The position numbers and the translations under genes were made by a program. Source: a virus (Duplodnaviria > Caudoviricetes). From it: 53,319 nucleotides of DNA. The stretch covers positions 1 to 53,319 of the IMG/VR virus record IMGVR_UViG_3300030106_001611; one strand, written 5' to 3'. Each line of letters starts with the position of its first letter. The first letter of the stretch is position 1. Below the pieces are notes generated by a model that made no database searches, was not told the origin of the DNA, and saw only the letters and a program-made list of their open reading frames with translations. Positions 1 through 53,319 of the stretch are shown here, piece by piece.

Positions 1-80
1 GTGCTAAAACTGGGGATACCTTACGAGGTGTCGTGAGGTTGTTTCGTTCGTTGGTTGAGAAGCGGGGTTGGATTCATTTC
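1..80. repeat. 80-bp terminal direct repeat, left copy (circular assembly overlap)
   Basis: Bases 1-80 equal 53240-53319 except A60 vs G53299. Confidence 0.95.
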
Positions 81-99
81 CAGCCCCGTTTCTTTTTTT
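61..99 (+). terminator. Intrinsic terminator after the 53021-53275 gene (across the junction)
   Basis: GCGGGGTTGGA/TCCAGCCCCGT stem followed by a T-run. Confidence 0.8.
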
Positions 100-100
100 G

Positions 101-129
101 TTGACAAGGTATTTGGTTATCGATATTGA
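101..129 (+). promoter_or_regulatory. Putative sigma70 promoter for early genes
   Basis: TTGACA-17 bp-TATTGA directly after a terminator; -10 lacks the final T. Confidence 0.5.
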
Positions 130-136
130 TAAAGTT

Positions 137-358
137 ATGAAGATATCCCGACCCAAAGAAGCAACGTGGGACAACGCCAAACTATATCGCGTTGATTTCT
201 ACGACTTGCGACTACCAGTATCCGGCACACGGCTCGTGTGGGCTGTTGTCGGACACAAATGGGTTCGCATATGTACCCCTGTACAAAACAAAAAGTTTCG
301 TGTAAGACGGGGTGAATGGGACAAAATGTCAACACAGGAGATACCCGACGATGAATAA
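137..358 (+). CDS. Hypothetical early protein (73 aa)
   Basis: ATG at 137 preferred; the TTG at 68 lies inside the terminator. Confidence 0.65.
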   Translation: MKISRPKEATWDNAKLYRVDFYDLRLPVSGTRLVWAVVGHKWVRICTPVQNKKFRVRRGEWDKMSTQEIPDDE

Positions 359-545
359 TATTCGCAAACAACTTAAAAATGACACGAGTGAGGAAATTGA
401 CTTTCACTTATTGATTGCTGTTGTTAATGAAATCCTAGAAGATGTTAAACACGGGGACTACACCGCTATTGAGTGTTTGTTTCAATACTTGGACGACCCA
501 GAATATAGACTAAAACAATTTTTAAGAAACCCTAGTACAGATTAA
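351..545 (+). CDS. Hypothetical early protein
   Basis: AGGAG RBS before ATG 351; tightly packed with neighbours. Confidence 0.65.
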   Translation: MNNIRKQLKNDTSEEIDFHLLIAVVNEILEDVKHGDYTAIECLFQYLDDPEYRLKQFLRNPSTD

Positions 546-557
546 GGAGGGAGATTG

Positions 558-746
558 ATGATGCCAAAGTATGAAGTAATGCGAAGCTACACTGTATGTA
601 GCGTCGCCATTGTTGAAGCAGAGAACAGTGATGAGGCTATAGAAAAGGCCATAGTTGGAGACTGTATTACAGTCAAAGAATACGATTCTGATTATGATGA
701 GGACATTACTGTAGAGGAGATAAGCAGTGAACGTACCGACGTTTGA
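558..746 (+). CDS. Small acidic protein, DpnD/PcfM-like
   Basis: AAGGAGG RBS; VEAENSDEAIEKA motif. Confidence 0.6.
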   Translation: MMPKYEVMRSYTVCSVAIVEAENSDEAIEKAIVGDCITVKEYDSDYDEDITVEEISSERTDV

Positions 747-894
747 AGAATTAAAGCGGGATTTACAAATCCTAGAAATTGAACCAGAGTATGACCGCAT
801 AGGACGAATTAAATTGACAGGCAATCGTCCCGCCTCTATTAAAGTTACAAAGTTAATGTTAAAAAGAGCGAACGATGGAAAACAAAAAACGTAA
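727..894 (+). CDS. Hypothetical 55-aa protein (not in the ORF track)
   Basis: GAGGAG RBS, GTG start, fills the gap between neighbours (MNVPTFEELKRDLQ...). Confidence 0.55.
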   Translation: MNVPTFEELKRDLQILEIEPEYDRIGRIKLTGNRPASIKVTKLMLKRANDGKQKT

Positions 895-1063
895 ATTTGT
901 AGTCGAGGTGGTTGCATCTGTATGCCAAGAAATAATTGTTAGGGCTGATTCGGAAGAAGAAGCAAAAGAACAGGCACATGAAATATTTGCAGATGATTGG
1001 AGACAACTTGAAGGTGTGCCAGAAATATTTGAACAATACACATACGACATAGGCGAGGTGTAA
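875..1063 (+). CDS. Small acidic protein, DpnD/PcfM-like; probable paralog of 558-746
   Basis: VRADSEEEAKEQA motif. Confidence 0.6.
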   Translation: MENKKRKFVVEVVASVCQEIIVRADSEEEAKEQAHEIFADDWRQLEGVPEIFEQYTYDIGEV

Positions 1064-1065
1064 CA

Positions 1066-1275
1066 ATGGGAAAAGTTAAAGCATGGGCAATGGACAACGA
1101 AGACAAATGGTTCGACATTGCTAATTCAATAATTGGCGGTTGCGAAACTATAGCTGAATTTATCATAGCAATGGAACCACACAGTGACTTGATGGCGCAT
1201 TTCACAAGTGAGGAACTTAACGAACTGCAATGTGAAGCATGGGATGAATACTGGAGCGAGTACAATGTACGTTGA
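1066..1275 (+). CDS. Hypothetical acidic protein
   Basis: GAGGT RBS; operon packing. Confidence 0.7.
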   Translation: MGKVKAWAMDNEDKWFDIANSIIGGCETIAEFIIAMEPHSDLMAHFTSEELNELQCEAWDEYWSEYNVR

Positions 1276-1462
1276 ACCAGCGTACCCCAACTTGGCAAGC
1301 GACCCACGCTTAACAAATGTTACTGACAAATGGCGAACGTTAAACAGACAAATCAGTGACGCTGACTGGCATGGCAAGCCCGTGACAAAAGTAGAACATG
1401 ACAAATTATCCACGCTAAGACAAATGGTGCACGATGGCAAATTATACACACCAAAATTTTGA
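1265..1462 (+). CDS. Hypothetical protein
   Basis: GGAG RBS before ATG 1265. Confidence 0.6.
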   Translation: MYVEPAYPNLASDPRLTNVTDKWRTLNRQISDADWHGKPVTKVEHDKLSTLRQMVHDGKLYTPKF

Positions 1463-1616
1463 CAAACGAACCACATTAAACCCTAATTTCAAATGTATTA
1501 AGTGCGGCGAACCAGCAATGGTTTATGTAGATAAATGGCTTTACTGTCCAAAATGCTATCTAAAAGAACAGGGCGCGAAAATAAAACCGCTTGACCATCG
1601 CGGGTTTTATCCATAA
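1434..1616 (+). CDS. Small Zn-ribbon protein
   Basis: CIKC...CPKC. Confidence 0.6.
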   Translation: MANYTHQNFDKRTTLNPNFKCIKCGEPAMVYVDKWLYCPKCYLKEQGAKIKPLDHRGFYP

Positions 1617-1650
1617 GGTTCCAGAACAATCAACAAAAGGAACCAACCAG

Positions 1651-1884
1651 ATGAAAAAACGAATACATATAAACCAGCACGTGATTCGTGCAAATAAAAA
1701 GAACGGGGAAGCGAACCCGCCTATCACTGTCAAAACCAGTAAAAGCAATCATTATACCTATGCGGCAGAAATTGACGGGTTGTCGCGGGTTGTCTACTCA
1801 CCAGATAAACCGTTATCTTGTGGTGCTAAAGTTTGGATAGAAACCGACGCGCCAGTCTGGATTCACACGGGCGAGGTAATATGA
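1651..1884 (+). CDS. Conserved phage hypothetical protein
   Basis: AAAGGA RBS; KRIHINQH...KPLSCGAKVWIET pattern recognised from marine phages. Confidence 0.7.
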   Translation: MKKRIHINQHVIRANKKNGEANPPITVKTSKSNHYTYAAEIDGLSRVVYSPDKPLSCGAKVWIETDAPVWIHTGEVI

Positions 1885-2567
1885 TGAAAAAAGCAGATAT
1901 AAACAAGCCAGCCGTGACCATGTATCCAAAGAGCCGTCGCGCTGTTGCCGATTGCAAATCCGTTTTGAAACAATCCAAAAACAAAAAACTGTCAAAAGAT
2001 GACTTGCCCATAATTAAAAAAGGCAAGTTTAAAGGTTATATAATCTATACTCTGACGTTAGAAGAACGGGCAACTTGTCCTCGTTATTGTTATCACTGGG
2101 ATGACTGCTACGGTAACAATATGCACAGAGGGCACCGTATAGAGCACGGGCCGGAACTTGAAGCCGCATTACAAAAAGAAGTTGCGGAACTTTGCGGATT
2201 GTATCGCGGGGTTATTATCCGGTTACACGTGCTGGGTGATTTCTATTCGGTGGATTATGTCGAACTATGGCAATTTCTATTAGACAGGTTTGATAACTTG
2301 GCTATTTGGGGATTTACTGGGCACAAGCCATCTAGTGATATCGGGCTTGCTATCCGTGCCGTGCGGGGTGGATTCGGTGACCGATTCGCTGTCCGTTTTA
2401 GCAACGCGCCGGACTGGCAATTCAGCGCGAACAGTGCCGACCTATTCGAACCAGTCAAAAACAAATCGGTAATCTGTCCAGAACAAACAGGCGCGACCGA
2501 ATCGTGCGCGACGTGCACAATATGCTGGGCGGCAAAAGATATGCAGGTTTTGTTTCAAACCCATTGA
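1881..2567 (+). CDS. GP88-like Cys-rich (probable Fe-S) protein
   Basis: CPRYCYHWDDC, RLHVLGDF, CPEQ...CATCTIC; GAGGT RBS. Confidence 0.7.
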   Translation: MMKKADINKPAVTMYPKSRRAVADCKSVLKQSKNKKLSKDDLPIIKKGKFKGYIIYTLTLEERATCPRYCYHWDDCYGNNMHRGHRIEHGPELEAALQKEVAELCGLYRGVIIRLHVLGDFYSVDYVELWQFLLDRFDNLAIWGFTGHKPSSDIGLAIRAVRGGFGDRFAVRFSNAPDWQFSANSADLFEPVKNKSVICPEQTGATESCATCTICWAAKDMQVLFQTH

Positions 2568-2659
2568 TGACAAATTGCCCACGCTAAACTATTATTGGGG
2601 CTTGTGTGTGCTTTCGGTTTCCGTTGTTGGTTCGGGGGGCTGGGCACGGCACGGGCGGC

Positions 2660-2702
2660 GGGGTGTCGCGAGTCGCGGGGCGGCATCCCATTATTTTTTT
2701 TT
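2660..2702 (+). terminator. Intrinsic terminator
   Basis: GGGGTGTCGC/GCGGCATCCC 10-bp stem plus long T-run. Confidence 0.7.
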
Positions 2703-2780
2703 CGGGAATCGGGTTCCCATCTGGTCAATTCCGTGTATAGTTGTGTTATTGTTAATCAAACAACGAAAGGAACGAAACGA

Positions 2781-3794
2781 ATGTTTGATTTAATCCAGCC
2801 CGAATATCAGCGCGAGGGCGGCGCGACCTACTACCATCACAACGAAGTATCAGATACCCAGCTTTTCAAAGATATGGGTTCGGTGCGGCGGGTGCCAATC
2901 GAAGCCATCACAAGCCAAGATTATTCCGACATTGAATTGTGCGAATCAACACCAATGCCGAATTACTCAGCTTTGCAAAATACGGCAACGGGTGAGTTAC
3001 TGGATACGCGGCCAATCGGTAAAACCTACAAGCTTGTTCCGCATGATGAACTGTTCGCGAACCATGCCGATATCTTGGCGGGTTCAGATTTACCCGTCGG
3101 CAATGTAAAAGTGCTAGACCGAATATATGATGATGGATTGCGTGCCCATCGAACCGTCCATTTCATGGACTTACAACACAGCGTTGGTGAAAAGCAGGAC
3201 AACGTTGTCTGTCGCATGGACATATTCAACAGCATAGATATGTCTTGGGCTTTCCAGATATTCAGCGGGGCATATCGTGACTTGTGCCGCAATACGTTGG
3301 TGTTCGGTGGTGAGAAGGCGTATCACCAGAAATCAAAACACACTAAGAACCTCGAACCAGCGGCATTGATTAGCAAGGCGGCAATGGGTTTGAATATGTG
3401 GGAAACCCAGCTTGAGTTGATGAACCGTTGGCGGGGTGCCCGTTTATCAGATGAACAATTCGGGCAGATACTTGCCGAAACGGTCTGCCATAAATCCGGC
3501 GCGGCGGCTGAACAAGGCCATGCCAAGCCAGTGAATGAGCGGCTATTCAATTATCTGATGCACCAATTCAATGCCGAAAAGCAGGAATTGGGCGCGACTA
3601 TGTGGGCGGCCTATAATGCCCTGACGCATTGGTCAACGCACACAAACGTGACATGGCAGGATGCAAACGGGACCGAGCGGCAGACTGGCAAAAGCACAGC
3701 CAGCCAGCACTTGGTTCAGCGAACCCGTAACGATAAGGTACGCGACGTTATCACAAGCCCGTCATGGCAATATCTTGAATCACTGGCGGCGTGA
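2781..3794 (+). CDS. DUF932-family protein
   Basis: YKLVPHDELF, NSIDMSW, RDLCRNTL, HTKN, TMWAAYNALTHWSTH; AAAGGA RBS before ATG 2781. Confidence 0.75.
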   Translation: MFDLIQPEYQREGGATYYHHNEVSDTQLFKDMGSVRRVPIEAITSQDYSDIELCESTPMPNYSALQNTATGELLDTRPIGKTYKLVPHDELFANHADILAGSDLPVGNVKVLDRIYDDGLRAHRTVHFMDLQHSVGEKQDNVVCRMDIFNSIDMSWAFQIFSGAYRDLCRNTLVFGGEKAYHQKSKHTKNLEPAALISKAAMGLNMWETQLELMNRWRGARLSDEQFGQILAETVCHKSGAAAEQGHAKPVNERLFNYLMHQFNAEKQELGATMWAAYNALTHWSTHTNVTWQDANGTERQTGKSTASQHLVQRTRNDKVRDVITSPSWQYLESLAA

Positions 3795-3874
3795 TGGAAG
3801 CACTATACGTCATTTATCGCAGTCTGACGGTGCTGTTGATAATTGTATTCATTTACGCCGTTTTCATTCAATAA
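3794..3874 (+). CDS. 26-aa membrane peptide (not in the ORF track)
   Basis: TGATG coupling; MEALYVIYRSLTVLLIIVFIYAVFIQ. Confidence 0.5.
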   Translation: MEALYVIYRSLTVLLIIVFIYAVFIQ

Positions 3875-3895
3875 CTGGAAAAAGGAACCAGAACG

Positions 3896-4291
3896 ATGAC
3901 AACCAACAACGAACATATTAATGAGCTTTGCAACCAGCTTGTGGCGGCGGTGCGGCAGGATATCCGGCAGGAATTAACCGAAAAATTGCGCGAGGAATTC
4001 GCCACGGGTGTCGCAACTGGTATGCACGGCGAACCATTGGAACCAGTCGCACGGCGGCGCGGCGAACGGGGTGCCGATAAACGACCGTTTCGCCCTAATT
4101 CATCCCTTGCCAAGCTTTATCGGGTTTTGGCTAGTCGTAAGACTGGGGTGAATATCCAGACATTGGCGCGTGAAACCGGACTGACTAAAAAGGCGATTCA
4201 TATGGCAGTTTATAAGCTTCGCAAACATGGCTATAGCATTGTGGTAAAGCGCGAGGGATTCCAGCGGCCAAAATATAAGCTTGCCAGCTAA
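3896..4291 (+). CDS. Winged helix-turn-helix DNA-binding protein
   Basis: IQTLARETGLTKKAIHMAVYKLRKHGYSI. Confidence 0.75.
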   Translation: MTTNNEHINELCNQLVAAVRQDIRQELTEKLREEFATGVATGMHGEPLEPVARRRGERGADKRPFRPNSSLAKLYRVLASRKTGVNIQTLARETGLTKKAIHMAVYKLRKHGYSIVVKREGFQRPKYKLAS

Positions 4292-4362
4292 ACCAAAACC
4301 AACTATTAATAATGGGGACGGGGCACAGCTTGTCCTCATTTTTAACAGAAGGAACCAACGAT

Positions 4363-4608
4363 ATGAAAAGCACAATATCACTCAATAAGGATAATTTCGA
4401 TAGCGACGCTAAGCGGATGATAGTTTTAACCACAGTTGAAGCGGCGTTAATCTTGCAATCTATCGAAGCATTAGAAACACAGGCGGCGGCGTCAAAGGCG
4501 TTGCTCCGGTCTTTGGGTTTCGACCATTATACCCATGCAACCGACAACCCGCGAACCGTTGCCCGTCTAAATTTAGCGGTGAAAGAGGCCAGCGATGACC
4601 GCAACTAA
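4363..4608 (+). CDS. Hypothetical protein
   Basis: AAGGA RBS before ATG 4363. Confidence 0.65.
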   Translation: MKSTISLNKDNFDSDAKRMIVLTTVEAALILQSIEALETQAAASKALLRSLGFDHYTHATDNPRTVARLNLAVKEASDDRN

Positions 4609-4705
4609 TATCATTATGCTTGTATTGCTGGCATGGATTGTTATTGCTTGCTGGTGTTTGTGTGCCGCACTATACGACTTAGCGCGGGATGATTTGAACC
4701 GCTAG
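4595..4705 (+). CDS. 36-aa membrane peptide (not in the ORF track)
   Basis: GAGG RBS; hydrophobic IIMLVLLAWIVIACWCLCAALY. Confidence 0.5.
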   Translation: MTATNIIMLVLLAWIVIACWCLCAALYDLARDDLNR

Positions 4706-4752
4706 TTTATCCTCCACAGGGGCGGGCTTGCCTCCCTTTCCCGCTCCCACTT

Positions 4753-4786
4753 GACCTCGCTAGCTAGTCTGGCGGGGTTCTTTTTT
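4753..4786 (+). terminator. Intrinsic terminator ending the early operon
   Basis: ACCTCGCTAG/CTGGCGGGGT stem plus T-run. Confidence 0.8.
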
Positions 4787-5165
4787 GTCTGGACTTGTTT
4801 ATCGCCAGCACGGGATTGTAAAGCTTGTAGATATTTGGTGCGGGGATTGTGTGGGAAGGCATATATATTTTACCGTGAAGGCCATGCCACGGGATACCAG
4901 CATGACAAAACAATCATGGGCGCATACGTGCGTGCGGGATATTGCGGGGTTTAGTGTGTGTTCGCGGGGTTGCAACGACCAGCCATAAAGCCAGCGCGGG
5001 AACTATCACCGATGGTTTGTAAAAATATTTGGCTGTGCGCGGGTGCGCGAGGGACACCCCACCCCCCTGCCAATTGCTATGCAATCCCGACATATTTTTT
5101 GTATATTTAGGTTATCGACATGGGTTATTTGCAACCCGTTAGGGGACCCCAAGGTATTACCCAAC

Positions 5166-5195
5166 AAAAAAACCCCCCGGCTTGAACCGAAGGGT
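5166..5195 (-). terminator. Intrinsic terminator (minus strand)
   Basis: ACCCUUCGG-UUCAAG-CCGGGGGGU plus U-run; G-U pairs work only on the minus strand. Confidence 0.8.
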
Positions 5196-5255
5196 ATCAT
5201 TTTGCGAACCTTTAGGGAGACGGGGGGTAGATATGGGGTTTATCCCCGGCAGACC
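5166..5255 (-). ncRNA. Putative ~90-nt small RNA
   Basis: Bounded by a near-consensus minus-strand promoter and a minus-strand terminator; no credible ORF inside. Confidence 0.6.
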
Positions 5256-5261
5256 TAGTTC

Positions 5262-5290
5262 ATTGTATAGGTAAAATTCGCATTTGTCAA
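5262..5290 (-). promoter_or_regulatory. Leftward sigma70 promoter
   Basis: TTGACA (5290-5285)-17 bp-TACAAT (5267-5262). Confidence 0.75.
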
Positions 5291-5340
5291 CAAAAATCGA
5301 CCCTAAGTCAAATTTTTGACTCAATAACCCTCATAACGTG

Positions 5341-5369
5341 TTGACAACGGTTCCAAAACTCGCCATAAT
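5341..5369 (+). promoter_or_regulatory. Rightward sigma70 promoter of the packaging/structural operon
   Basis: TTGACA-17 bp-CATAAT. Confidence 0.75.
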
Positions 5370-5404
5370 AGAGGAATATTGCTTCTGGTTCGTGGAGAAA
5401 AGGA

Positions 5405-5605
5405 ATGTTCGAAGCTTGGATATTGATTTGTTTGGTTTCTAACCCATCAGAATGCACTGAAGCACAGGATATGTTGGGTCCCTACGCTACTGTAGAGCGA
5501 TGCGAAGCTCGTGCAGACGAAATGGTGACAAATTCTCTTAAAATAGTACCCTTCGAAACTACCGTTAAATGGAAATGTGTTGACGTAAGCGACAACTATA
5601 CCTGA
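5405..5605 (+). CDS. Small Cys-containing, probably exported protein
   Basis: Hydrophobic N-terminus; YATVERC...KWKC. Confidence 0.65.
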   Translation: MFEAWILICLVSNPSECTEAQDMLGPYATVERCEARADEMVTNSLKIVPFETTVKWKCVDVSDNYT

Positions 5606-5608
5606 TAT

Positions 5609-6016
5609 ATGAATTTACTTCCCCAAACTCAAGCCAAGAAACCTGCTTTGACCGAAAAACAGGAACAGTTCTTGGATGCGCTGTTCGAAAACGGCGGTAA
5701 TATGCGTCAGGCAGCAGAAGTTGTCGGCTATGCGTCCGGTTCTGTCAAATGGTTGAAGGACAGACTGGCTGACGAGATAGTAGAACGCACACGAACCATG
5801 TTAGCGGGACAATCCTTACAAGCCGCGAACAAAATAGCTAACCTCGTAACCGCCCCAGACATAGAACGGGGTGATGACCTGCGCCTACGAGCAGCGGAAG
5901 CCATCCTCAACCGTGTTGGGCTTGGTAAGCAGGAAACCATGAACCATAATGTGCAGGCAATCCACGGCGTAGTCCTGTTGCCGCCCAAAAAAGAAACTAT
6001 CATAGAAGGAAACTAA
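5609..6016 (+). CDS. terS: Terminase small subunit
   Basis: LTEKQEQFL...QAAEVVGY HTH; upstream of terL. Confidence 0.75.
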   Translation: MNLLPQTQAKKPALTEKQEQFLDALFENGGNMRQAAEVVGYASGSVKWLKDRLADEIVERTRTMLAGQSLQAANKIANLVTAPDIERGDDLRLRAAEAILNRVGLGKQETMNHNVQAIHGVVLLPPKKETIIEGN

Positions 6017-6019
6017 CCG

Positions 6020-6343
6020 ATGGAAATGGCCCGGAACGCAATAGCTTCACGATACGCAGGTATGAGTGAGGCTGAGTTTAATAAAGAAGTTAGTGATGTG
6101 GCTCGAACCGCGAGGAATGATTCCGAAGCTGCACAAGCTAGGGACCGGATGATTCGTCTAAGAGAAATGGGTATGGGAACCAAGCCCCCATCCGAAGTTG
6201 TGCAGGATGAAAAAAGGGGCGGTAAAAATCCACCCAGCGTCATGGCTCGTGGTGGCAAAGCCAAAGGCTATCGCTACGGCACACCCAAGGGTGGCGTAAG
6301 AAAGAAAGTTAAAGCTTGTCGCGGACGCAAAGCGAATTATTAA
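6020..6343 (+). CDS. Hypothetical protein with GG motifs (possible virion protein)
   Basis: RBS; MARGGKAK, RGRKANY. Confidence 0.65.
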   Translation: MEMARNAIASRYAGMSEAEFNKEVSDVARTARNDSEAAQARDRMIRLREMGMGTKPPSEVVQDEKRGGKNPPSVMARGGKAKGYRYGTPKGGVRKKVKACRGRKANY

Positions 6344-6354
6344 GGAGTAGGGAT

Positions 6355-6609
6355 ATGTCAGAAATAAGACAGCCTAGACATGGTGGGGATGATTATGACC
6401 CGGCTATGGAGGCGTTTAAAAAAAAGGTCCGTGATTGGATGGCGGGTGGCAGAAAAGGACCCGCACCGGAGTACGATTCTTCCGAAATGTATATGGGAGA
6501 AGGAGAAATAACTACTGCACGACAGATAAAAAATAGAGCCAATTTGATGAAGCTGAGAAGCAAAATAGCAAAGGGCCGTCAAGCTGCAAGCAGCACAGAA
6601 AAAGATTAA
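6355..6609 (+). CDS. Hypothetical protein
   Basis: TAAGGAG RBS; TAATG coupling to terL. Confidence 0.7.
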   Translation: MSEIRQPRHGGDDYDPAMEAFKKKVRDWMAGGRKGPAPEYDSSEMYMGEGEITTARQIKNRANLMKLRSKIAKGRQAASSTEKD

Positions 6610-8330
6610 TGGCTCCTCGCAAACGTGTCCTAGTCCCCCCGAACCCAGAGGACTTAGGTAAAGTCGGCAGACCGAAGAAGCGTCCCGGCGAATCTAAGAC
6701 AGAGTACAAGCTTTCGCCCCGCGAACGGGCAAGGCGTTCCGTACAGATGCGGTTGCAAAATGCCAAGAAGCAACAGAAGAAACAAGAGACACGAGTTGCT
6801 CGTAAACGAAAGAAGGTCAAAGACCTCACTGTTGCTGCCAGCAACATACAGAATGCTTTGAACGGTGAAAAGACCCGTGTTGTTGACCAAGCCGATTTAG
6901 ACATTCTACCCCCTGCTGTTACAGAACTGATAGATGATGCACCTATTATATTCAAACCCAATGAGGGTCCTCAAGAAGAGTTTTTGTCGGCACCTGAACA
7001 AGATGTATTATATGGGGGAGCGGCTGGTGGCGGCAAATCATTTGCTTTACTTGCAGACCCCTTACGCTATTGCCATAATGCCAACCATCGTGGCCTGCTT
7101 CTTCGGCGAACGTTAGACGAACTAACCGAACTTATTGACAAGTCAAAACAGCTTTACCCCAAAGCGTTTCCCGGTGCACACTTTCGTGAATCCAAATCTA
7201 CTTGGGTCTTTCCATCAGGTGCAACCATGTGGTTCACCTATCTCGACAGAGATAAAGATGTAACCCGTTTCCAAGGTCAGGCGTTTAACTGGATTGGGAT
7301 AGATGAAATAACACAGTACCCCAACAGCTACGTTTGGGACTACCTTCGTTCCCGTCTTCGTTCTACGGATGAGGAACTACAACAAAACCTAACCATGCGT
7401 TGTACAGCTAACCCCGGTGGTGTTGGCGGCTGGTGGGTAAAGAAGATGTACATAGATGCCAACGAACCAAACAAGGCATTTGGTGCAAAAGATTTAGAGA
7501 CGGGTCGTACCTTTGTATGGCCCGAAGGTCATCCGAAAGCAGGTCAACCTCTATTCTACCGCAAGTTCATTCCAGCGAGGTTGACTGATAACCCCTTCCT
7601 GATGGCAGACGGTCAATACGAGGCCATGCTTCGGTCGCTCCCAGAAGTCGAGCGTAGACGGCTTTTAGAAGGGGATTGGGATGTAGCGGAGGGAGCCGCC
7701 TTCCCAGAGTTTTCAAGGACACGCCATGTGGTCGAACATTTTGAGCTTCCCACGAACTGGCCCCGCATACGTGCCGCCGACTACGGCTACTCCAGCCCGT
7801 CGTGTGTTCTATGGGGTGCTATTGATTGGGATAATAATATTTGGGTTTATCGTGAATTATACGTAAAACACTTGACAGCAGAACAACTAGCTGATAAAAT
7901 ATTAGAATGTGAAGAACTAGACCCAACTCCTCATTACACGGTCTTAGATTCTTCCTGTTGGAACAAAACCGGATTCGGGCCATCTATAGCAGAGACTATG
8001 ATGCGCTGCGGTGTTAGGTGGATTCCCTCAGACCGCAACCGTCTTCAAGGAAAAATGGAACTTCACAGGCGGCTTGCTGATGACCCCTACTCTAACGAAC
8101 CACGGATGCGGATTTTTTCCACTTGTAAGCATGTTATTGCACAGCTATCAGGCATTCCACTCTCCAAAACAAACAGTGAAGATGTAGACACACGAGCAGA
8201 GGACCATGCCTACGATGCGTTGCGATACATGGTTATGACGCGAACCTCTGGTTACCACTCTATTCACAAGACCCTTCAAGGGATAAAAGACCAAACCTTT
8301 AAACCCTTCGATAATACCTTCGGATACTAA
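6609..8330 (+). CDS. terL: Terminase large subunit
   Basis: Walker A GGAAGGGKS, Walker B WIGIDE, coupling motif TANPGG, nuclease motifs ADYG and EDHAYDALRY. Confidence 0.95.
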   Translation: MAPRKRVLVPPNPEDLGKVGRPKKRPGESKTEYKLSPRERARRSVQMRLQNAKKQQKKQETRVARKRKKVKDLTVAASNIQNALNGEKTRVVDQADLDILPPAVTELIDDAPIIFKPNEGPQEEFLSAPEQDVLYGGAAGGGKSFALLADPLRYCHNANHRGLLLRRTLDELTELIDKSKQLYPKAFPGAHFRESKSTWVFPSGATMWFTYLDRDKDVTRFQGQAFNWIGIDEITQYPNSYVWDYLRSRLRSTDEELQQNLTMRCTANPGGVGGWWVKKMYIDANEPNKAFGAKDLETGRTFVWPEGHPKAGQPLFYRKFIPARLTDNPFLMADGQYEAMLRSLPEVERRRLLEGDWDVAEGAAFPEFSRTRHVVEHFELPTNWPRIRAADYGYSSPSCVLWGAIDWDNNIWVYRELYVKHLTAEQLADKILECEELDPTPHYTVLDSSCWNKTGFGPSIAETMMRCGVRWIPSDRNRLQGKMELHRRLADDPYSNEPRMRIFSTCKHVIAQLSGIPLSKTNSEDVDTRAEDHAYDALRYMVMTRTSGYHSIHKTLQGIKDQTFKPFDNTFGY

Positions 8331-8332
8331 AG

Positions 8333-10888: not shown

Positions 10889-10902
10889 TTAAGGAGACGA
10901 AT

Positions 10903-11115
10903 ATGCGTAACGAAACTATGGGTATGGGTGCTATTCTTAATAGCGACAAAACACCCGTTACTGACCAAGGCGGTGCAGCAAAGCTGTATCGTGAAGGTCT
11001 GGAGTTCGACACTCGCGTTAAGACTGGGCCTATTACAGAAGATATGCCAAAGAAACAGTCTAAGCCAACTGTCGAAGCTTCGTTGTTTAAGATGGCTGAC
11101 GAACGCGATTACTAA
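10903..11115 (+). CDS. Small hypothetical protein
   Basis: TAAGGAG RBS; precedes the portal. Confidence 0.7.
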   Translation: MRNETMGMGAILNSDKTPVTDQGGAAKLYREGLEFDTRVKTGPITEDMPKKQSKPTVEASLFKMADERDY

Positions 11116-11121
11116 AATCAT

Positions 11122-13242
11122 ATGTCAGAAGATAACTTTTTACAACCGGAAGACGACACGGTACTTCCTGTTCGCACCCCAGAAGAACAGATGCCGGGGC
11201 TTGCAGGGTATGTGACTTCTAAATTTAGAGATGCTGAAACAGGACGGTTCGCTCACGAACAACGATGGCTTCAGGCATACAAAAACTTTAGGGGCATATA
11301 TGACTCTACTACTCAATACAGGGATTCCGAACGGTCACAGGTGTTTGTTCGAATCACCAAGACTAAGGTTCTTGCAGCGTTTGGTCAAATTATTGACATA
11401 CTGTTCGCAAACAAGAAGTTTCCCCTCGTAGTAGAAGCCACTCCTGTACCTGAAGGTATAGCTGAATTTGCACATATGGAAACGCCTCTCGACCAGATGG
11501 AAGACCCTTTCGGGTTTAAAGGTGACGGAAGAGAGTTGTTACCGGGTGCTTTACGTGCAGAATCTAAAGGCGACTTCTTAGGTGGTTTGAAGAATGAAAT
11601 GGGCGGTCTGCCGCTGGCAGAGGGTCCTGCTCGTATGGGTGAACCGCAGATAAAGCCAGCCCAAAAAGCTGCTTTACGTATGGAAAAAGTTATTCACGAC
11701 CAACTTACTGACACAAACGCAGTTAATGTTATGCGTAATTCTGTGTTTGAATCTGCCCTTTTAGGGACTGGTATCGTAAAAGGACCATTCAACTTCTATA
11801 AACGTGTTCACAAATGGGAGCGTGATGAAGATGGTCAAAGGGTTTACAACCCAGAAGAAAAAATAGTGCCGCGCATTGAGATGGTATCTATATGGGACTT
11901 TCATCCCGACCCTTCTGCTACTAACATAAACGACTGTGAATACGTCATAGAACGTCACCGTATGAACAGGCAGCAATTACGTGCCTTAATCAAACGTCCA
12001 CATTTTATATCAGAAGCAATCGAAGAGTGTCTAGCCAAAGGTCCCAACTACGAAGACAAGTATTATGAAGATACTATTCGTGAAGATGAAACAGAACCAT
12101 TCTATCAAGGCAACCGTTATGAGGTTCTGGAGTATTGGGGTGTTTTAGACGCTAAACTAGCCGACGAAGTTGGTTTATTAGAAGCCGAAAACATGTCGGA
12201 GTTTGACGAACTACAAGTCAATGTATGGGTTTGCGGCAACATGGTTATCCGATGTGTGCTAAATCCGTTTACTCCGGCTCGTATCCCTTATCAAGTATTC
12301 CCCTACGAAGTCAACCCGTATCAGTTGTGGGGTGTTGGCGTAGCGGAAAACATGGAAGATGCACAGAAGCTGATGAACGGTCACGTTCGTATGGCAATCG
12401 ACAATCTTGCTTTAGCTGGTAACTTAGTCTTTGACGTTGATGAGGCTAGCTTAGTTCCGGGTCAGAACATGGACATCTTCCCCGGCAAGATATTCCGTCG
12501 TCAATCTGGTGTTACTGGGACAGCTATCAACGGCTTAAAGTTTCCAAACACAGCAGGTGAAAACTTGCAGATGTATCAGATTAGCCGTCAACTTGCAGAT
12601 GAAGAGACAGGCATACCTTCCATTGTTCATGGGCAAACAGGTGTTAGCGGGACGGGACGAACTGCTGCTGGTTTGTCGATGCTCATGGGTTCTGCTGGCT
12701 TGTCGATGAAAACAGTTGTCAAGAACATTGACGACATGTTGTTGAAGCCTTTGGGAGAGGCATACTTCCAGTGGAATATGCAGTTTAACGACGAAGCAGA
12801 GGACATCCAAGGGGACTTGGAAATCAAACCTCGCGGTGTTGCAGCCGTTATGCAAAAAGAAGTGCGGACACAGCGTCTGACTTCACTCTTACAGACTGTA
12901 GCCAACCCAATGCTTGCGCCATTCATCAAGATACCTAACCTGATGCGTGAACTGGCTATATCGCAAGACATAGACCCTGACAGCCTAGTAAATGATGCGA
13001 ACGAAGCTCAACTATATGCACAGATGCTAAAAGGAATGATGGCTAATGTACAGCAAGGAACAGGCGACGCTGGTGGGGCCGCTGCTGGCCCAGCCCAAGA
13101 TATGGCAGGGGTTGGAGGAGTACCTCCTAGTCCTGAAGGAACAGACGTACAGGGGTCTGGTAACGGCACAATCGGAGTCGGAACTGCGCCAACTGCAGGG
13201 GAAAGCGGCTTTACTGGAAACGCTCCTCAAACTGAAGGATAA
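11122..13242 (+). CDS. Portal protein
   Basis: 706 aa; SALLGTGIVK, WDFHPDPSA, WGVGVAE, ADEETGIP; position. Confidence 0.9.
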   Translation: MSEDNFLQPEDDTVLPVRTPEEQMPGLAGYVTSKFRDAETGRFAHEQRWLQAYKNFRGIYDSTTQYRDSERSQVFVRITKTKVLAAFGQIIDILFANKKFPLVVEATPVPEGIAEFAHMETPLDQMEDPFGFKGDGRELLPGALRAESKGDFLGGLKNEMGGLPLAEGPARMGEPQIKPAQKAALRMEKVIHDQLTDTNAVNVMRNSVFESALLGTGIVKGPFNFYKRVHKWERDEDGQRVYNPEEKIVPRIEMVSIWDFHPDPSATNINDCEYVIERHRMNRQQLRALIKRPHFISEAIEECLAKGPNYEDKYYEDTIREDETEPFYQGNRYEVLEYWGVLDAKLADEVGLLEAENMSEFDELQVNVWVCGNMVIRCVLNPFTPARIPYQVFPYEVNPYQLWGVGVAENMEDAQKLMNGHVRMAIDNLALAGNLVFDVDEASLVPGQNMDIFPGKIFRRQSGVTGTAINGLKFPNTAGENLQMYQISRQLADEETGIPSIVHGQTGVSGTGRTAAGLSMLMGSAGLSMKTVVKNIDDMLLKPLGEAYFQWNMQFNDEAEDIQGDLEIKPRGVAAVMQKEVRTQRLTSLLQTVANPMLAPFIKIPNLMRELAISQDIDPDSLVNDANEAQLYAQMLKGMMANVQQGTGDAGGAAAGPAQDMAGVGGVPPSPEGTDVQGSGNGTIGVGTAPTAGESGFTGNAPQTEG

Positions 13243-50030: not shown

Positions 50031-50574
50031 TGTGTAATTCCTCAAATGTAGTGCCAAAGGCGTGAAGCTGCTTACATGCAATTTGTTCAGTAGCAAGCAC
50101 GTCAGCCCGTCCATACTCGTCTACTATTCCCCACGGTATGTCGTAGAATGTCTTCCCCTCTTTAAGATACGGCGCAACGAGGTCCTTCTCCTTTTTGGTA
50201 ACGTCATACTTTTCTGCAAGAGCAGCAAGTCCAAGAGGCCAACGCTGCGCTTTGGATAAAACATATTCAGCCACCATCGTATCGTAGACATCACCATCAT
50301 AAACAAATCCACACTCCCGTATCCAAGATAAATCAAACTTTATGTTTTGTCCCACGACCATATCAGCTTCGTCAAGTGCAGATTGAAATAGCTCAAAAGC
50401 AAAGTCGTGAGGCTGTTTCTCAGAATGATAATAGCAATGGTACATAATCGTATTCATGTGCAACCACTTGTAACCTATTGAAACTAAAGAGTTTCCAAAG
50501 TATGGCAAAGCGGTTGTCGAACCATTAGGCTTATGTTTGTGGGTAGTTTCCACATCAAAGGTAAGTACGTTCAT
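49990..50574 (-). CDS. Stand-alone 3'-5' exonuclease domain of polA
   Basis: ExoI DVET, ExoII NIKFD, DTM, ExoIII YGRAD; TGATG coupling to the helicase. Confidence 0.85.
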   Translation of the reverse strand: MNVLTFDVETTHKHKPNGSTTALPYFGNSLVSIGYKWLHMNTIMYHCYYHSEKQPHDFAFELFQSALDEADMVVGQNIKFDLSWIRECGFVYDGDVYDTMVAEYVLSKAQRWPLGLAALAEKYDVTKKEKDLVAPYLKEGKTFYDIPWGIVDEYGRADVLATEQIACKQLHAFGTTFEELHNAADFATDIKTIT

Positions 50575-51815
50575 CAGTAGTACACCCCCCTCTGTATATC
50601 TATGTGACTGTTGAACATACCGTGCCACCCATTTAGTTTGTTTTTAGAAATACAAATGTGCCGCGTGGTGTTCTCTTCTTCTGATGTGCCTGTCTTGCCT
50701 ATACCTATGATAACGTCTGCTTCACCCGCCTTTCCTGTTCGCGAACCATCCAACATAGCATAGTCAATAAATTGACGGTCGTGAGCTTCAAAACTGGCTT
50801 GGCTGACAGACCACACTAACAACTTATTACGCTTGGCAATCTCTCGTGCAACAACATAAGTTTCTTTTAGGCGTTCATCACCACGGTTGAACTCCCCCGC
50901 AACTTTGAATTTGTCCAACTGGTCACAGAACATAACATCTGGTTCGTTTAACTGAGCATACTCGTTTAGTTCATCCATAGATGTGCCAACCGAATCCATG
51001 ACAACTAAGTAAGGTTCTATTTCTTGCTGGTAACGAAGAGACAAGGCATCTGCACCAGAGTCCATCTCTTCACGAGTGAACCCGAAAAAACTCTGTATTA
51101 TCCGTATCTTAATCTTCTCTGCTGGCTCCTCGTTAGCCCAGTATACAACCTTCTTCTTTTGCTTCACATAGCTAGCAGCAATAAAGGCGCAGAAAGTTGT
51201 CTTACCGACCTCTGGACGTGCAAAGATTATACCTAAGTTACCTCTATCCATACCCGCTAGATGTTCGCTTAGTAAGTCCCAAGTAAATGGGAAATCGGGT
51301 TCTCCAGTCTCATCTTCCATGAGTTGAGCAAAGTCTTTAGTTACTTCTGTGTAAGTAGTTTTGTCGGACATCCGACCGTCTTCTACCATATCAATTAAAG
51401 TCTTTAACTCCCCGAAGTGTTCTGATTCGCCAGTAAATATCGCGATGGCTTTCTCACCAATTTGTCTGGCACGGTCACGAACCCAAAAGTTGCGTACAAC
51501 ATCCGACTCCAACTCTTGTGTATCGGACATATGTGTGGATAGTTTATCTACAATATCGTATAGTTCCTGCATTGTTGACGCAGGTGTTGCAGGATTACGG
51601 TCAGCCATCACTGCCGCCAGTTGTCTGGGGTGCATCGTAACAGCGTATTTCCTATGCCCATACGTAATCGCATCGAAGATAGTGGTGTACCTACCCTCGA
51701 ACATATCCCGTGTTATGATGTTCTTTACGCTATTGTAGAAATCGTGGTTTAGTAGGAAACCAAGAACCTGTATCTCAATCGAGATACTTTTCGAATGTTC
51801 GTTTTCGTTCATCAT
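50574..51815 (-). CDS. Replicative SF4 (DnaB-like) helicase
   Basis: ARPEVGKT, NEE, CDQLD, SQA, ADVIIGI, KNK. Confidence 0.9.
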   Translation of the reverse strand: MMNENEHSKSISIEIQVLGFLLNHDFYNSVKNIITRDMFEGRYTTIFDAITYGHRKYAVTMHPRQLAAVMADRNPATPASTMQELYDIVDKLSTHMSDTQELESDVVRNFWVRDRARQIGEKAIAIFTGESEHFGELKTLIDMVEDGRMSDKTTYTEVTKDFAQLMEDETGEPDFPFTWDLLSEHLAGMDRGNLGIIFARPEVGKTTFCAFIAASYVKQKKKVVYWANEEPAEKIKIRIIQSFFGFTREEMDSGADALSLRYQQEIEPYLVVMDSVGTSMDELNEYAQLNEPDVMFCDQLDKFKVAGEFNRGDERLKETYVVAREIAKRNKLLVWSVSQASFEAHDRQFIDYAMLDGSRTGKAGEADVIIGIGKTGTSEEENTTRHICISKNKLNGWHGMFNSHIDIQRGVYY

Positions 51816-52569
51816 CTGACATATCTTTCACATCTTTGTTCAAAACAACTAAGCTTGTTGGCCTATGGGCCTGCAGTTGCCTGACAAGTTGCAACGCTTT
51901 CTTGGTTGCATCTTTATCCAAGGCAACAACTAATCTATCATATCTCCGTAAAAACGGCAAGTGACTGTCCTGTAAGTTTGTTCCCAGCAGGGCTATGCCC
52001 GACAAATAATCAGAAATACAACAAGCACTAGCACAATCTTCCAAAATAACTCCCACGGCTCCGTCACCGCAGGTAAAAGGACTACCTGAGTTAGCATATC
52101 TCCACCACTTTGGTTTGGTGTTAGTTAAACTACGACCCGCCGCATCAACAGTGTTACGCCCGTCCTTAATTAGATAGACAACACGATTCATGCGAAAGTC
52201 ATACCGAATATCAACACGCCCTGCAAGGTACGCATCGTAAGCATTAACCCGCTTGACATAAGATTCAGCAACGGGTTCACGAGAGAGAGCCACAAAAGTT
52301 TCTGGTAATTCAAAGGTTTGGTCTACATCAGGTTCGCGAACTGGTTGCATCTTTCTTAGTAAAGGATGATAGGGAGCATCTTTACGAACCCTAAATCCTG
52401 TTCTCCCGCGAACATTACAGTCCGCATGAAAACAAAACCACAGACGTTCCCCGCCCGTGTCGCTTACACTGAATGTGTTTTTCTTACCACACGCAGGGCA
52501 GTTCATCCGTAGACGACCTTCTGGTGCAATAGACAAACCTTCTACATATTCTTTCAACCACGCTGTCAT
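51775..52569 (-). CDS. DNA primase
   Basis: CPAC...CFHADC Zn domain; TOPRIM LED, LLGT, LDKD, KD. Confidence 0.85.
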   Translation of the reverse strand: MTAWLKEYVEGLSIAPEGRLRMNCPACGKKNTFSVSDTGGERLWFCFHADCNVRGRTGFRVRKDAPYHPLLRKMQPVREPDVDQTFELPETFVALSREPVAESYVKRVNAYDAYLAGRVDIRYDFRMNRVVYLIKDGRNTVDAAGRSLTNTKPKWWRYANSGSPFTCGDGAVGVILEDCASACCISDYLSGIALLGTNLQDSHLPFLRRYDRLVVALDKDATKKALQLVRQLQAHRPTSLVVLNKDVKDMSDDERKRTFEKYLD

Positions 52570-52590
52570 TGGCGTTCTCCTGTGTGACGA

Positions 52591-52649
52591 CAAATACGCC
52601 ACGACAAAATCAGTGTCAACTAAAATTTTTACTTGACGAACTGTTGACA
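52591..52649. promoter_or_regulatory. Divergent promoter region (replication vs early operon)
   Basis: Minus-strand TTGACA-17-TATTTG; plus-strand TTGACG and TTGACA; GTCAA-N13-TTGAC palindrome. Confidence 0.55.
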
Positions 52650-52694
52650 GGCATGATACCCAATACGAACAGTAACCCTTTAGGTAGCTATAAA

Positions 52695-52841
52695 ATGAAG
52701 ATAACTCCTATAAATCAATATGCTAAGTTACTTAGAGATAGACAGTACAAAAACAGAATTGTACCTGACAAGAGAAAAAGTAAATTAAATAAACTTGCAA
52801 AGAAGGAAATGAAGGATGGCAAGACCCGCCAAGATACCTGA
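52695..52841 (+). CDS. Small basic protein (48 aa)
   Basis: AGGT RBS; NQYAKLL...RIVPDKRK. Confidence 0.6.
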   Translation: MKITPINQYAKLLRDRQYKNRIVPDKRKSKLNKLAKKEMKDGKTRQDT

Positions 52842-53049
52842 ACCAACTAAGACATACAGTCTGCTGTTATCTGTCGAACAATATGACAGATTAGCAGAAC
52901 ACGCCAAGAAACTTGACAAAAAGAGTTACGAACAGGTCAGTGTTGGTGACCTAATCCGTGACGGGATTGAGCTATATCTTGAGGCATTAGATGACAATGA
53001 ATATTATCCAGAGGGACAAGATGAACTCTTTGAAAACGAAAAAGCTTGA
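52816..53049 (+). CDS. Ribbon-helix-helix DNA-binding protein
   Basis: TYSLLLSVEQYDRL...SVGDLIRDGIELYL. Confidence 0.7.
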   Translation: MARPAKIPEPTKTYSLLLSVEQYDRLAEHAKKLDKKSYEQVSVGDLIRDGIELYLEALDDNEYYPEGQDELFENEKA

Positions 53050-53275
53050 AATAGAAATTGTGGAACGGCCTGACTATAAGTGGGCATTGGTTGTTCCAGC
53101 ATCATCTGTTCGAATCGGGGAAACAGACCGCGAATTGGTGAAGAAGAAAGATTGCGTAGATTATCTACGGCACGTCACCCTGTTCGTTGCAAAAAGTCGA
53201 TGGGATTGTAAAATGTGGCTTGACAGGAACAAACAGGCGGTGCTAAAACTGGGGATACCTTACGAGGTGTCGTGA
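53021..53275 (+). CDS. Hypothetical protein
   Basis: GAGG RBS; followed by the terminator across the junction. Confidence 0.65.
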   Translation: MNSLKTKKLEIEIVERPDYKWALVVPASSVRIGETDRELVKKKDCVDYLRHVTLFVAKSRWDCKMWLDRNKQAVLKLGIPYEVS

Positions 53276-53319
53276 GGTTGTTTCGTTCGTTGGTTGAGGA
53301 GCGGGGTTGGATTCATTTC
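53240..53319. repeat. 80-bp terminal direct repeat, right copy
   Basis: Matches 1-80 with one mismatch. Confidence 0.95.

Follow-up and report, generated by a model that had tools for sequence, protein, structure and literature searches.

The virus record IMGVR_UViG_3300030106_001611 (Duplodnaviria; Caudoviricetes), a complete IMG/VR record (53,319 bp; CheckV completeness 100), is referred to here as the window, and our subject is one segment of it, made up of a region of small early genes and its flanks, from which the palindromic word GCWGC is entirely missing. Our analysis shows that depletion of this kind is limited to a segment, specific to palindromes, recurrent among relatives, and bounded sharply at a conserved non-coding element upstream of the small terminase subunit gene, terS. 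We lean towards an explanation in which the zone enters the cell ahead of the remaining DNA and the genome has a fixed end, marked by the conserved element; that order of entry, such an end and a protective early function are what we infer from the pattern of sites. The large terminase subunit (TerL) is 47-56% identical to those of Roseobacter CRP phages, Pelagibacter phage HTVC033P and Puniceispirillum phage HMO-2011, and therefore the phage belongs to the HMO-2011-type marine podoviruses; its portal and terS also match isolates of this type, and its genome fits the ~53-55 kb of the group.

A pattern search finds 147 GCWGC sites in the 53.3-kb window and none from 51180 across the contig junction to 5710, which is exactly what the initial annotation had read by eye, along with the bordering sites at 51175 (in the helicase gene) and 5711 (in terS); its count of about 14 sites in 42528-51180 was off by little, the actual number being 15. 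On the circular map the gap measures 7775 bp, and the second-largest gap 2071 bp. The largest-spacing probability for GCWGC is 1.4e-8, the most extreme value for any specific word among the 3472 tested, with only the degenerate WWWWWW lower. Scaling from the remaining genome gives an expectation of 25.1 sites in the segment (Poisson 1.3e-11), Markov models of orders 1, 2 and 3 trained on the segment itself expect 11.5, 13.2 and 9.0, and GCAGC/GCTGC is the most depleted 5-mer class there. Dinucleotide shuffles of the segment (n = 1000) have a mean of 11.5 sites and a minimum of 4, and synonymous-codon shuffles (n = 2000), a null that had been proposed beforehand as a check, give 11.4 ± 2.6 with a minimum of 3; zero was reached in 0 of 1000 and 0 of 2000 shuffles, respectively. 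Outside the segment the word is neutral (144 sites observed against 141 ± 6.4 in codon shuffles), in agreement with the claim that the depletion is confined to one segment, and against a dinucleotide null over the whole genome it is over-represented (147 vs 95 expected). Words of the GCWGC class occur at neutral frequency in 85% of the genome, and the other 15% lacks them. GCSGC, in turn, is over-represented in the segment, with 29 sites against 14.2 expected and a maximum of 24 among 2000 shuffles.

Codon choice shows how the sites were removed, namely by writing Ala-Ala as GCG-GCN rather than GCA/GCT-GCN. The 16 Ala-Ala pairs of the segment gene set begin with GCG in 14 cases, GCC in one and GCT in one, and the sole GCT-first pair would be the site at 51175 that borders the gap on its outer side, within the helicase gene, so the earlier observation that pairs in the segment start with GCG or GCC stands; the positions given then as examples (1762, 3501, 4441 and 4483) are every one a GCSGC site. 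GCA and GCT make up 93 of the 189 Ala codons in the same gene set. Outside the segment, 120 of 166 Ala-Ala pairs begin with GCA or GCT, bearing out the free use noted earlier for structural genes, and Ala-Ala pairs account for 120 of the 146 in-gene GCWGC sites. Both GCAGC and its reverse complement GCTGC are absent from the segment, with ~12 of each expected by scaling, and the segment has genes on both strands; therefore the target is double-stranded DNA. A cause at the RNA level, such as a ribonuclease site, is ruled out, as both reverse-complement words are gone from the genes of both strands and from the non-coding spacer. Chance or local base composition, to which we give practically no probability, could draw on the higher G+C (0.49) between 2 and 5.7 kb and on the absence there of some non-palindromic words (GAAGA, AGAG), but it is rejected by both sets of shuffles, the excess of GCSGC, the concentration of the depletion in palindromes and the flat controls at the boundary described below.

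GCWGC is not the only word concerned. When the genome is divided into an early zone from the primase start to the terS start (E), the 10-kb replication module (R) and the late region (L), CCSGG and GGSCC are also cleared early (Table 1), and the idea of an effect specific to GCWGC, with one inhibitor for one GCWGC enzyme, is too narrow. The description of the zone as an early segment holds for the early genes but not for the primase gene and ~640 nt of the helicase gene, which it also takes in, on the other strand. A different class of words is avoided throughout the window: GATC has 0 sites genome-wide (150-200 expected), CCWGG 0 (65-69 expected) and GGTCTC 0 (13-19 expected), and CCGAG/CTCGG has a single site, at 3673, against 27-69 expected. 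In the late region alone GATC stands at 0 vs 91.5 expected and CCWGG at 0 vs 54.3, and many 6-bp palindromes are missing there too, among them CAGCTG, GCATGC, TGCGCA, ATGCAT and CTTAAG, each at 0-1 vs 7-14. The loss of GATC and CCWGG from the late region indicates that it can be cleared where selection acts there, and whatever recognises GCWGC, CCSGG and GGSCC acts on the early side only.

Table 1. Observed/expected sites by zone; the pooled rows hold only lineages in which the motif is cleared, with E selected for low counts and R and L not
Motif and set	E	R	L
GCWGC, window	0/11.6	15/16.6	132/92.9
CCSGG, window	2/11.3	3/7.1	47/36.4
GGSCC, window	1/10.1	2/7.6	29/39.3
GCWGC, pooled	10/150	104/174	616/461
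GGSCC, pooled	12/158	19/124	184/251
CCSGG, pooled	23/126	14/61	197/184
GGWCC, pooled	8/70	7/46	28/41

Recurrence of cleared zones among relatives

Relatives were sought at 139 loci, 59 around the gene of the DUF932 protein and 80 of the 279 confirmed around the helicase gene, and ten long or complete relatives (the G-numbered genomes) were also taken whole for comparison. GCWGC zones are found in G001, G007 and G009, are partial in G002, G006 and G010, and are lacking in G003 and G005. Gaps of other words comprise GGNCC in G003 (p = 3e-10) and, on the same ground, in G006, G010 and G002, as well as CCSGG in G002 and GCSGC in G004 (limits in Table 2). When the early regions of 10 genomes are set against a local Markov model, depletion at p < 1e-3 affects 22 of the 296 5-mer classes that are interrupted palindromes and 28 of the 4493 others, and the non-palindromic entries in the lists of the six most depleted classes per genome mostly contain GATC. 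CCWGG is absent from all relatives taken whole except for 2 sites in G003, and GATC is all-or-none, with 0 sites in 6 of 10 genomes (including the window) and 117-193 sites in 4 of 10.

For a broader view, 51 early regions spanning primase and terS were dereplicated at 95% identity into 34 lineages. GCWGC is cleared from the early region in 12 of these, GGSCC in 14, CCSGG in 9 and GGWCC in 7, and 22 of the 34 are cleared of at least one of the four words; the clearing extends in part into the neighbouring replication genes, whereas the structural genes keep these sites at about the expected frequency. The early-region proteins of the cleared lineages are 47-93% identical to those of the window, and therefore the absence of sites is actively maintained and not merely inherited. 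On sequence comparison, a cleared zone that recurs in diverged relatives with different palindromes favours a position-dependent cause, that is, a leading segment.

The pattern extends to cultured members of the group. HMO-2011 (NC_021864.1) has 217 GTAC sites and a GTAC-free gap of 10,151 bp (53595-55282 and 1-8464; local expectation 37.9, spacing p = 2e-17), which begins between gp71, the first gene of the late operon (ending at 53175, minus strand), and gp72, the first early gene (53665, plus strand), and spans the early genes, integrase, primase and helicase. A GCWGC gap of 8481 bp lies at the same place (15.1 sites expected), and GATC and CCWGG are absent from HMO-2011 genome-wide. HTVC033P has GCWGC and CCWGG gaps of 9.4 and 11.8 kb from the terS junction, for which the local expectations are only ~6. 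The early genes of both phages, collinear with the replication genes, point away from the junction, whereas in the clade of the window the early operon is inverted, lying on the plus strand and pointing toward the junction. The zone is present in both operon orientations, and therefore follows the position beside the start of the late operon and not the direction of transcription.

An alternative hypothesis is mosaic ancestry, in which a structural module was recently swapped in from phages whose hosts lack the enzyme, next to an older module that had been cleared. These phages are modular, and in the HTVC103P type a structural module like that of HMO-2011 is joined to a replication module of another kind (bioRxiv 10.1101/2019.12.14.876532). 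The partial gaps of G002, G006 and G010 look recombinant, and contig variants in two runs switch sequence at 5078 and 5109. We nevertheless regard this history as improbable. The late module shares the avoidance of GATC, CCWGG and 6-bp palindromes, which points to the same host regime; removal of sites would be equally beneficial anywhere in a genome, so that the 22 of 34 lineages, with four motifs, would each need a recent swap; and the zone of HMO-2011 covers the core primase and helicase genes.

The boundary at a conserved non-coding element

The two limits of the zone are of a different nature. The far limit, on the replication side, is ragged, ranging from -241 to -9028 relative to the primase start, and this fits a limit that depends on time. 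On the near side, the leftover early-region CCSGG sites of the window (5176 and 5245) all fall within the last 470 bp before terS, as do two of its three leftover early GGWCC sites (5144 and 5477). This part of the window is non-coding from ~4780 to ~5400 and holds an element (Table 2) with blastn matches in 51 of the 139 relative loci at 77-96% identity, and no match in the 5 cultured genomes included in the search. Across the junction regions of 10 oriented genomes (including the window) the element is clear in 7, and in 2 more it is seen only as matches of 15-17 bases. It is better preserved than the early genes around it. A short inverted repeat, TTGC-N3-GCAA, lies in it beside an A+T-rich run, with a C-rich tract on its left, and the basic helix-turn-helix (HTH) protein of the early region could be its binder.

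To locate the boundary, we took the element core as the origin and pooled the cleared motifs of the 17 lineages that have the element. In six 500-bp bins to the left, the density of cleared motifs is 0.19, 0.19, 0.06, 0.00, 0.19 and 0.39 per kb, and in six bins to the right it is 1.81, 2.20, 2.20, 2.14, 1.92 and 1.96 per kb, a left/right ratio of 0.08 over ±3000 with a rise from ~0.1 to ~2 per kb within ~100 bp. The last 250 bp left of the element contain six sites, every one of them at most 35 bp from the core, and the non-coding spacer from -500 to -250 contains 0, with ~15 expected at the density of the late region. The controls are flat: the ratio is 1.16 for 27 other W/S palindromic 5-mers, and G+C is 0.482 to the left and 0.485 to the right. 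The four motifs themselves give 0.58 in genomes where they were not called cleared. The step lies upstream of both the late promoter (+256) and terS (+390 to +650; ~0.5 kb in the window), and therefore coincides with the conserved element rather than with a gene or promoter. Such a step, together with a clean non-coding spacer, is not predicted by a boundary set by transcription units. It also argues against a large terminal redundancy extending past the element. The initial annotation had placed a genome end near 4.8-5.4 kb; the density step at 5063-5116 does fall inside this range, and the end itself would be the interpretation put on it.

This result bears on another possibility, which we consider unlikely: that the whole genome enters at once and cuts in late DNA are tolerated, being repaired or shielded by early products (for example, by ligase-dependent repair or nuclease inhibition), while cuts in the early and replication genes block such products, with the outcome that only those genes are cleared. 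The cleared zone is exactly the non-structural genes, ligase-dependent repair is reported to mitigate DNA-targeting nucleases in PhiKMV-like phages (bioRxiv 10.64898/2026.09.21.753257), and no fixed genome end is needed, which would suit the headful packaging described for a relative (PMC6256558). The step, in contrast, is at a non-coding element, with a spacer as clean as the genes (0 vs ~15 sites from -500 to -250); many of the cleared early ORFs (open reading frames) are dispensable in relatives; no ligase domain was seen among the ORFs scanned; and reassembly of a genome cut at ~130 sites is unlikely.

Terminator-like and promoter-like sequences surround the element (Table 2). To its left, a hairpin followed by a T run likely ends the early operon. 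To its right lie two near-consensus sigma-70-type promoters on opposite strands, each with 11 of 12 matches and a 17-bp spacer, of which the rightward one faces ORF 5405-5605, terS and the late operon. The leftward one is followed ~70-90 nt on by a terminator-like hairpin (5165-5290, minus strand), and from this arrangement a small transcript could be made. An Rfam scan of the whole window, including this leftward unit (~5255-5170), gave no family at the gathering score.

Proposed genome end and order of entry, and the early genes

We return to our preferred reading, the leading segment. A fixed end would lie at the element, between the early-operon terminator and the late (terS) promoter, which makes the element the predicted site of the genome end or of packaging. 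From there the late genes would be packaged first, followed by the replication module and finally the early region, and the last DNA packaged would be the first ejected. For some time the cell would then hold the early region (~6 kb) and part of the replication module, of variable length, with the late genes still to follow, and the zone would represent the portion of the phage DNA exposed to host restriction enzymes during their period of activity. A recognition site of a resident enzyme in the zone would be lethal and would be removed by synonymous changes, while late sites would be met only after an early function has blunted restriction, and could drift at neutral frequency. The cleared palindrome would vary by lineage, presumably because hosts carry different enzymes.

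An end at the element has two weak hints in its favour. The relative G005, for which IMG/VR records direct terminal repeats, has a 91-bp terminal repeat that contains the element core; four contigs with end overlaps were checked, and the chance of such an overlap with the core is ~1% by a post hoc estimate. For the relative PhiM6, PhageTerm is reported to place the packaging start at position 1 of its record (PMC6256558), and the terL match in that record starts at 1541, so that packaging would start at a place upstream of terL corresponding to that of the element. More distant TerL relatives (24-37% identity), from Arthrobacter, Pseudomonas, Felixounavirus and other phages, do not indicate a packaging type. 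The ends of the HTVC103P record, which lie ~1.5 kb from terL, were rejected as physical ends and taken as a convention, since the record starts at an ATG, its assemblies are stated to be circular and its ends share no repeat. In the window itself there is no large repeat. Its bases 1-80 equal 53240-53319 except for one mismatch (position 60), and therefore the contig closes on itself; its ends, which sit within ORF 52991-53275 (running on into bases 1-36), are most likely an assembly cut and not physical ends. The mismatch at position 60 is polymorphic in two other runs, and the 80-bp overlap partly spans a strong terminator-like hairpin at 57-94.

Contig variants covering window positions 1-12000 in four runs (X5, X6, X7 and X9) have loose ends at 5078, 5109 and 2704. 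The breaks at 5078 and 5109, in two runs, lie inside the conserved element. The X5 and X7 contigs switch to unlike sequence at 2704, and in the X7 contig 337-728 (390 bp) is replaced by 20 other letters; these replacements and switches are a sign that the natural population carries mosaic variants of the early region.

Several observations weigh against a leading segment with a fixed end. The one termini prediction for a relative, that of PhiM6, was for headful packaging with terminal redundancy (PMC6256558), and widely permuted ends would make a fixed leading segment impossible. Contigs of relatives show no excess of ends at the element (1 of 62 within 150 bp, 2 of 62 within 300 bp), and among the 24 listed runs, all available as assembled contigs, the four compared with the window show no molecule ends. 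The GCWGC gap in G002, G006 and G010 ends 2-4 kb before the junction, and three of the five cultured relatives (CRP-2, CRP-3 and CRP-13) are without a clear zone. The early operon in the clade of the window faces the proposed end, and its promoter would enter only after ~6 kb; transcription could not, therefore, pull that stretch in as in T7. No anti-restriction family, methyltransferase or phage RNA polymerase was recognised in the Pfam and PHROG scans (78 ORFs against Pfam). Finally, the genome-wide loss of GATC, CCWGG and many 6-bp palindromes shows that late DNA is not protected from every enzyme; the later DNA, which the initial annotation took to be protected by an early inhibitor, is not generally immune. 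A gradient of selection, strong in the zone and weak but nonzero elsewhere, would reconcile these losses with a leading segment.

The early genes do not single out a protective function. The initial annotation had named the DUF932 protein, the GP88-like protein and the small acidic proteins as inhibitor candidates; none of them stands out, and DUF932 is also present in relatives without a zone. It occurs in all ten relatives, including G005, which has no clearing limited to E. Its Pfam score is 70.7 bits against a cut-off of 23, and its start likely lies 62 codons inside the longest ORF. A Foldseek search of its model (pLDDT, the model confidence score, 81.8) against the Protein Data Bank returned nothing at E <= 0.001, a structure search of the Atlas matched DUF932 clusters only, and tblastn against cultured phages gave no match. 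In enterobacterial islands, genes for DUF932 proteins are found next to anti-restriction genes. Acidic products (isoelectric point, pI, 4.05-4.5) come from four small early genes, among which only that at 52816-53049 is kept in all ten relatives and could encode an early effector; it has no Pfam or PHROG match. Further acidic early ORFs include 555-746, 875-1063 and 1066-1275.

The GP88-like protein has invariant cysteines at 66, 70 and 76 (CX3CX5C) and, near its C-terminus, at 199, 209, 212 and 215, and the triad C66, C70 and C76 does not fit the CX3CX2C motif of radical S-adenosylmethionine (radical-SAM) enzymes. The best structural match of its model (pLDDT 87.6) is a spore photoproduct lyase (Z 6.0, root-mean-square deviation 4.4, 160 residues aligned), followed by about ten further radical-SAM entries at Z 4.3-5.6, with all scores below the level that the tool treats as reliable, and Foldseek gave nothing at E <= 0.001. 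The resemblance of the modelled fold to radical-SAM enzymes may serve as a lead, not as an assignment. A methyltransferase as the protective function was rejected, with none among the 78 ORFs scanned. No early gene is common to the window and HMO-2011 or HTVC033P, and any protective function would therefore not be one conserved protein across the group.

Early ORFs of this kind also leave room for a phage nuclease that cuts these palindromes in host DNA early in infection, so that phage DNA present at that time must lack them, an idea that corresponds to Davison's hypothesis for the T5 protein A1 (bioRxiv 10.1101/866236). Several early ORFs have no known function, but no nuclease domain was found in the early region by Pfam or PHROG, the cleared motif differs between close relatives with similar early genes, and the site-rich late region would be cut too, such that staged entry or separate protection would be needed again. 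We thus find this explanation very improbable.

Table 2. Positions of features in the window and limits of cleared zones in relatives
Feature	Position	Strand	Basis or remark
GCWGC-free zone, left part	51180..53319		first ~640 nt of helicase, whole primase, divergent region, first plus-strand early ORFs
GCWGC-free zone, right part	1..5710		plus-strand early operon, non-coding junction, first 102 nt of terS
Conserved non-coding element	core 5063..5116, block ~5041-5135		blastn and density step
Terminator-like hairpin and T run	4753..4779	plus	sequence pattern; likely early-operon end
Terminator-like hairpin	5172..5195	minus	would end short (~90 nt) leftward transcript
Sigma-70-type promoter, leftward	5262..5290	minus	pattern in 5/10 genomes
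Sigma-70-type promoter, rightward	5341..5369	plus	pattern in 6/10 genomes
Early region	~52570 across junction to ~4780	plus	~16 small ORFs, GP88-like protein, DUF932, HTH protein
Early ORF, candidate effector, 77 aa, pI 4.5	52816..53049	plus	in all 10 relatives compared
Early ORF, basic neighbour of the former	52991-53275	plus	in all ten relatives
Early ORF, 63 aa, pI 4.05, net charge -12	555..746	plus	no relative among genomes compared
Early ORF, 69 aa, pI 4.16, net charge -11	1066..1275	plus	in 7/10 relatives
GP88-like protein (PF17338), 228 aa	1881..2567	plus	Pfam; in 6/10 relatives
DUF932 protein (PF06067), 337 aa	2781..3794	plus	Pfam
HTH protein (HTH_11), basic	3896..4291	plus	Pfam
Late operon	from terS 5609 onward	plus	Pfam/PHROG scans
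terS (weak match)	5609..6016	plus	Pfam/PHROG
terL	6609..8330	plus	Pfam/PHROG, homology
Replication module	42528-52602	minus	Pfam/PHROG scans
DnaB-type helicase	50574..51815	minus	Pfam, PHROG
DNA primase (Toprim), first gene of module	51775..52602	minus	Pfam, PHROG
GCWGC zone, G001	-2545 (vs primase start) to terS+279		one site within
GCWGC zone, G007	-241 (vs primase start) to terS+96		no site
GCWGC zone, G009	-2107 (vs primase start) to terS+99		one site within
GCWGC zones, G002, G006, G010			partial
GCWGC, G003, G005			no GCWGC-free zone
GGNCC gap, G003	-6203 (vs primase start) to terS-437		p as in text
GGNCC gaps, G006, G010, G002	same ground as G003 gap		
CCSGG gap, G002	-7999 (vs primase start) to terS-653		
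GCSGC gap, G004	-9028 (vs primase start) to terS+784		

The remaining genome is laid out in two modules on opposite strands (Table 2). The replication module encodes a class II ribonucleotide reductase, a DUF3310 protein, endonuclease I, a Cas4-like exonuclease, a polymerase, the helicase and the primase. Two minus-strand ORFs with an overlap of ~125 nt, one for the exonuclease (49990-50628) and one for the polymerase (48486-50114), make up the split family-A DNA polymerase, whereas that of HMO-2011 is one gene (gp12); the polymerase ORF holds a DnaJ-type CXXCXGXG zinc insert (PF00684 and PF08273 matches), and gp12 is annotated likewise. The late operon encodes terS, TerL, an SU10-type portal and adaptor, the capsid, a lysozyme, tail proteins and two large proteins. 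Within it are two auxiliary oxygenases (17815-18450 and 21915-22997), one a 2-oxoglutarate-Fe(II) oxygenase and the other resembling the alpha subunit of a ring-hydroxylating oxygenase, whose HMO-2011 counterpart carries the annotation methanesulfonate monooxygenase. The late region also contains a direct repeat of 45 bp, its two copies (19761-19804 and 19862-19906) being 95.6% identical and ~100 bp apart. Proteins of 691 and 1634 aa (35291-42274), without a Pfam match, close the late operon. The internal core proteins of T7 are encoded at the end of its late operon, and by position alone the two proteins are candidates for T7-like internal core or ejection proteins. No close DNA relative was found among cultured phages by megablast of both zone ends.

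Known parallels and significance

The principle that restriction pressure is limited to first-entering DNA is already known from T5-like and T7-like phages. T5-like phages are reported to be affected by Type I, II and III systems only where a site falls within the first-step-transfer (FST) region (PMC10644984; bioRxiv 10.1101/866236). In the Tequintavirus case, sites of several enzyme types are harmful only in the first-entering 8% and are tolerated elsewhere through unknown pre-early functions, and in both T5 and the window the site-free segment adjoins a repeat-rich non-coding region. T5 differs in being a siphovirus whose terminal repeats measure 10 kb, with a defined stop signal for injection and a two-step transfer that has been shown experimentally, whereas the window is a 53-kb podovirus with no large repeat, a ragged far boundary and a staged entry that we infer.

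T7-like phages (T7 with its Ocr protein and the Marinomonas Murciavirus) are podoviruses too, and the window has its large proteins without a family assignment at the late-operon end, where the internal core proteins of T7 are encoded. The T7-like phages have an RNA polymerase of their own and early genes that point inward, whereas in the window none was found and the early operon points outward; the scan of 78 ORF translations against Pfam recognised no RNA polymerase family of the kind that would drive T7-type entry by transcription, and no relative of Ocr was found. The Marinomonas T7-like phages are described as restricted by a Type I system only when the motif is in the first-injected region, an effect that is stated to require fixed ends, and this region is variable and thought to encode anti-defence functions (PMC12455610). 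The motif there is a bipartite Type I motif, in contrast to the Type II-like palindromes of 4-5 bp in the window. In conjugative plasmids, the leading region is similar in that the first-entering DNA carries anti-defence genes (PMC11541004) and is said to be depleted in restriction targets (PMC12455610), but transfer there is single-stranded, from oriT. The classical genome-wide avoidance of palindromes is shared by the window for GATC, CCWGG and 6-bp palindromes, and differs from the local clearing of GCWGC-type words.

What is new is the occurrence of such clearing in an abundant marine group, the involvement of several lineage-specific Type II-like palindromes and the sharp step at a conserved non-coding element. 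A limited literature search, supplements aside, found no description of zone-limited site clearing in HMO-2011-type phages, and the main text of the main comparative paper on the group (PMC9038755) contains none of the words "restriction", "terminal repeat", "circular", "early" and "methyl". A more general proposal, which we make tentatively and hold with less confidence than the leading segment itself, is that HMO-2011-type podoviruses have unit-length genomes with fixed ends at a conserved non-coding element of ~50-90 bp upstream of terS, a polar and staged entry in the order early region, replication genes, late genes, and an early anti-restriction function that acts on several Type II enzymes together.

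The signature known from T5-like and T7-like phages is thus seen, from sequence alone, in a very abundant and mostly uncultured marine group, with at least four Type II-like sites that differ by lineage, where it predicts the location of the genome end, the end that enters first and a broad early anti-restriction function. The cultured phages HMO-2011, whose SAR116 host is culturable, and HTVC033P (SAR11) would permit direct tests. Statistics of avoidance over whole genomes miss a zone-limited adaptation of this kind, and steps in palindrome density could be used to locate leading regions and termini in metagenomic phage genomes. If the more general proposal is true, the footprint of restriction, as seen in the places where lineage-specific palindromes disappear and return, would reveal genome ends, the polarity of injection and the restriction repertoire of the host from contigs of uncultured phages.

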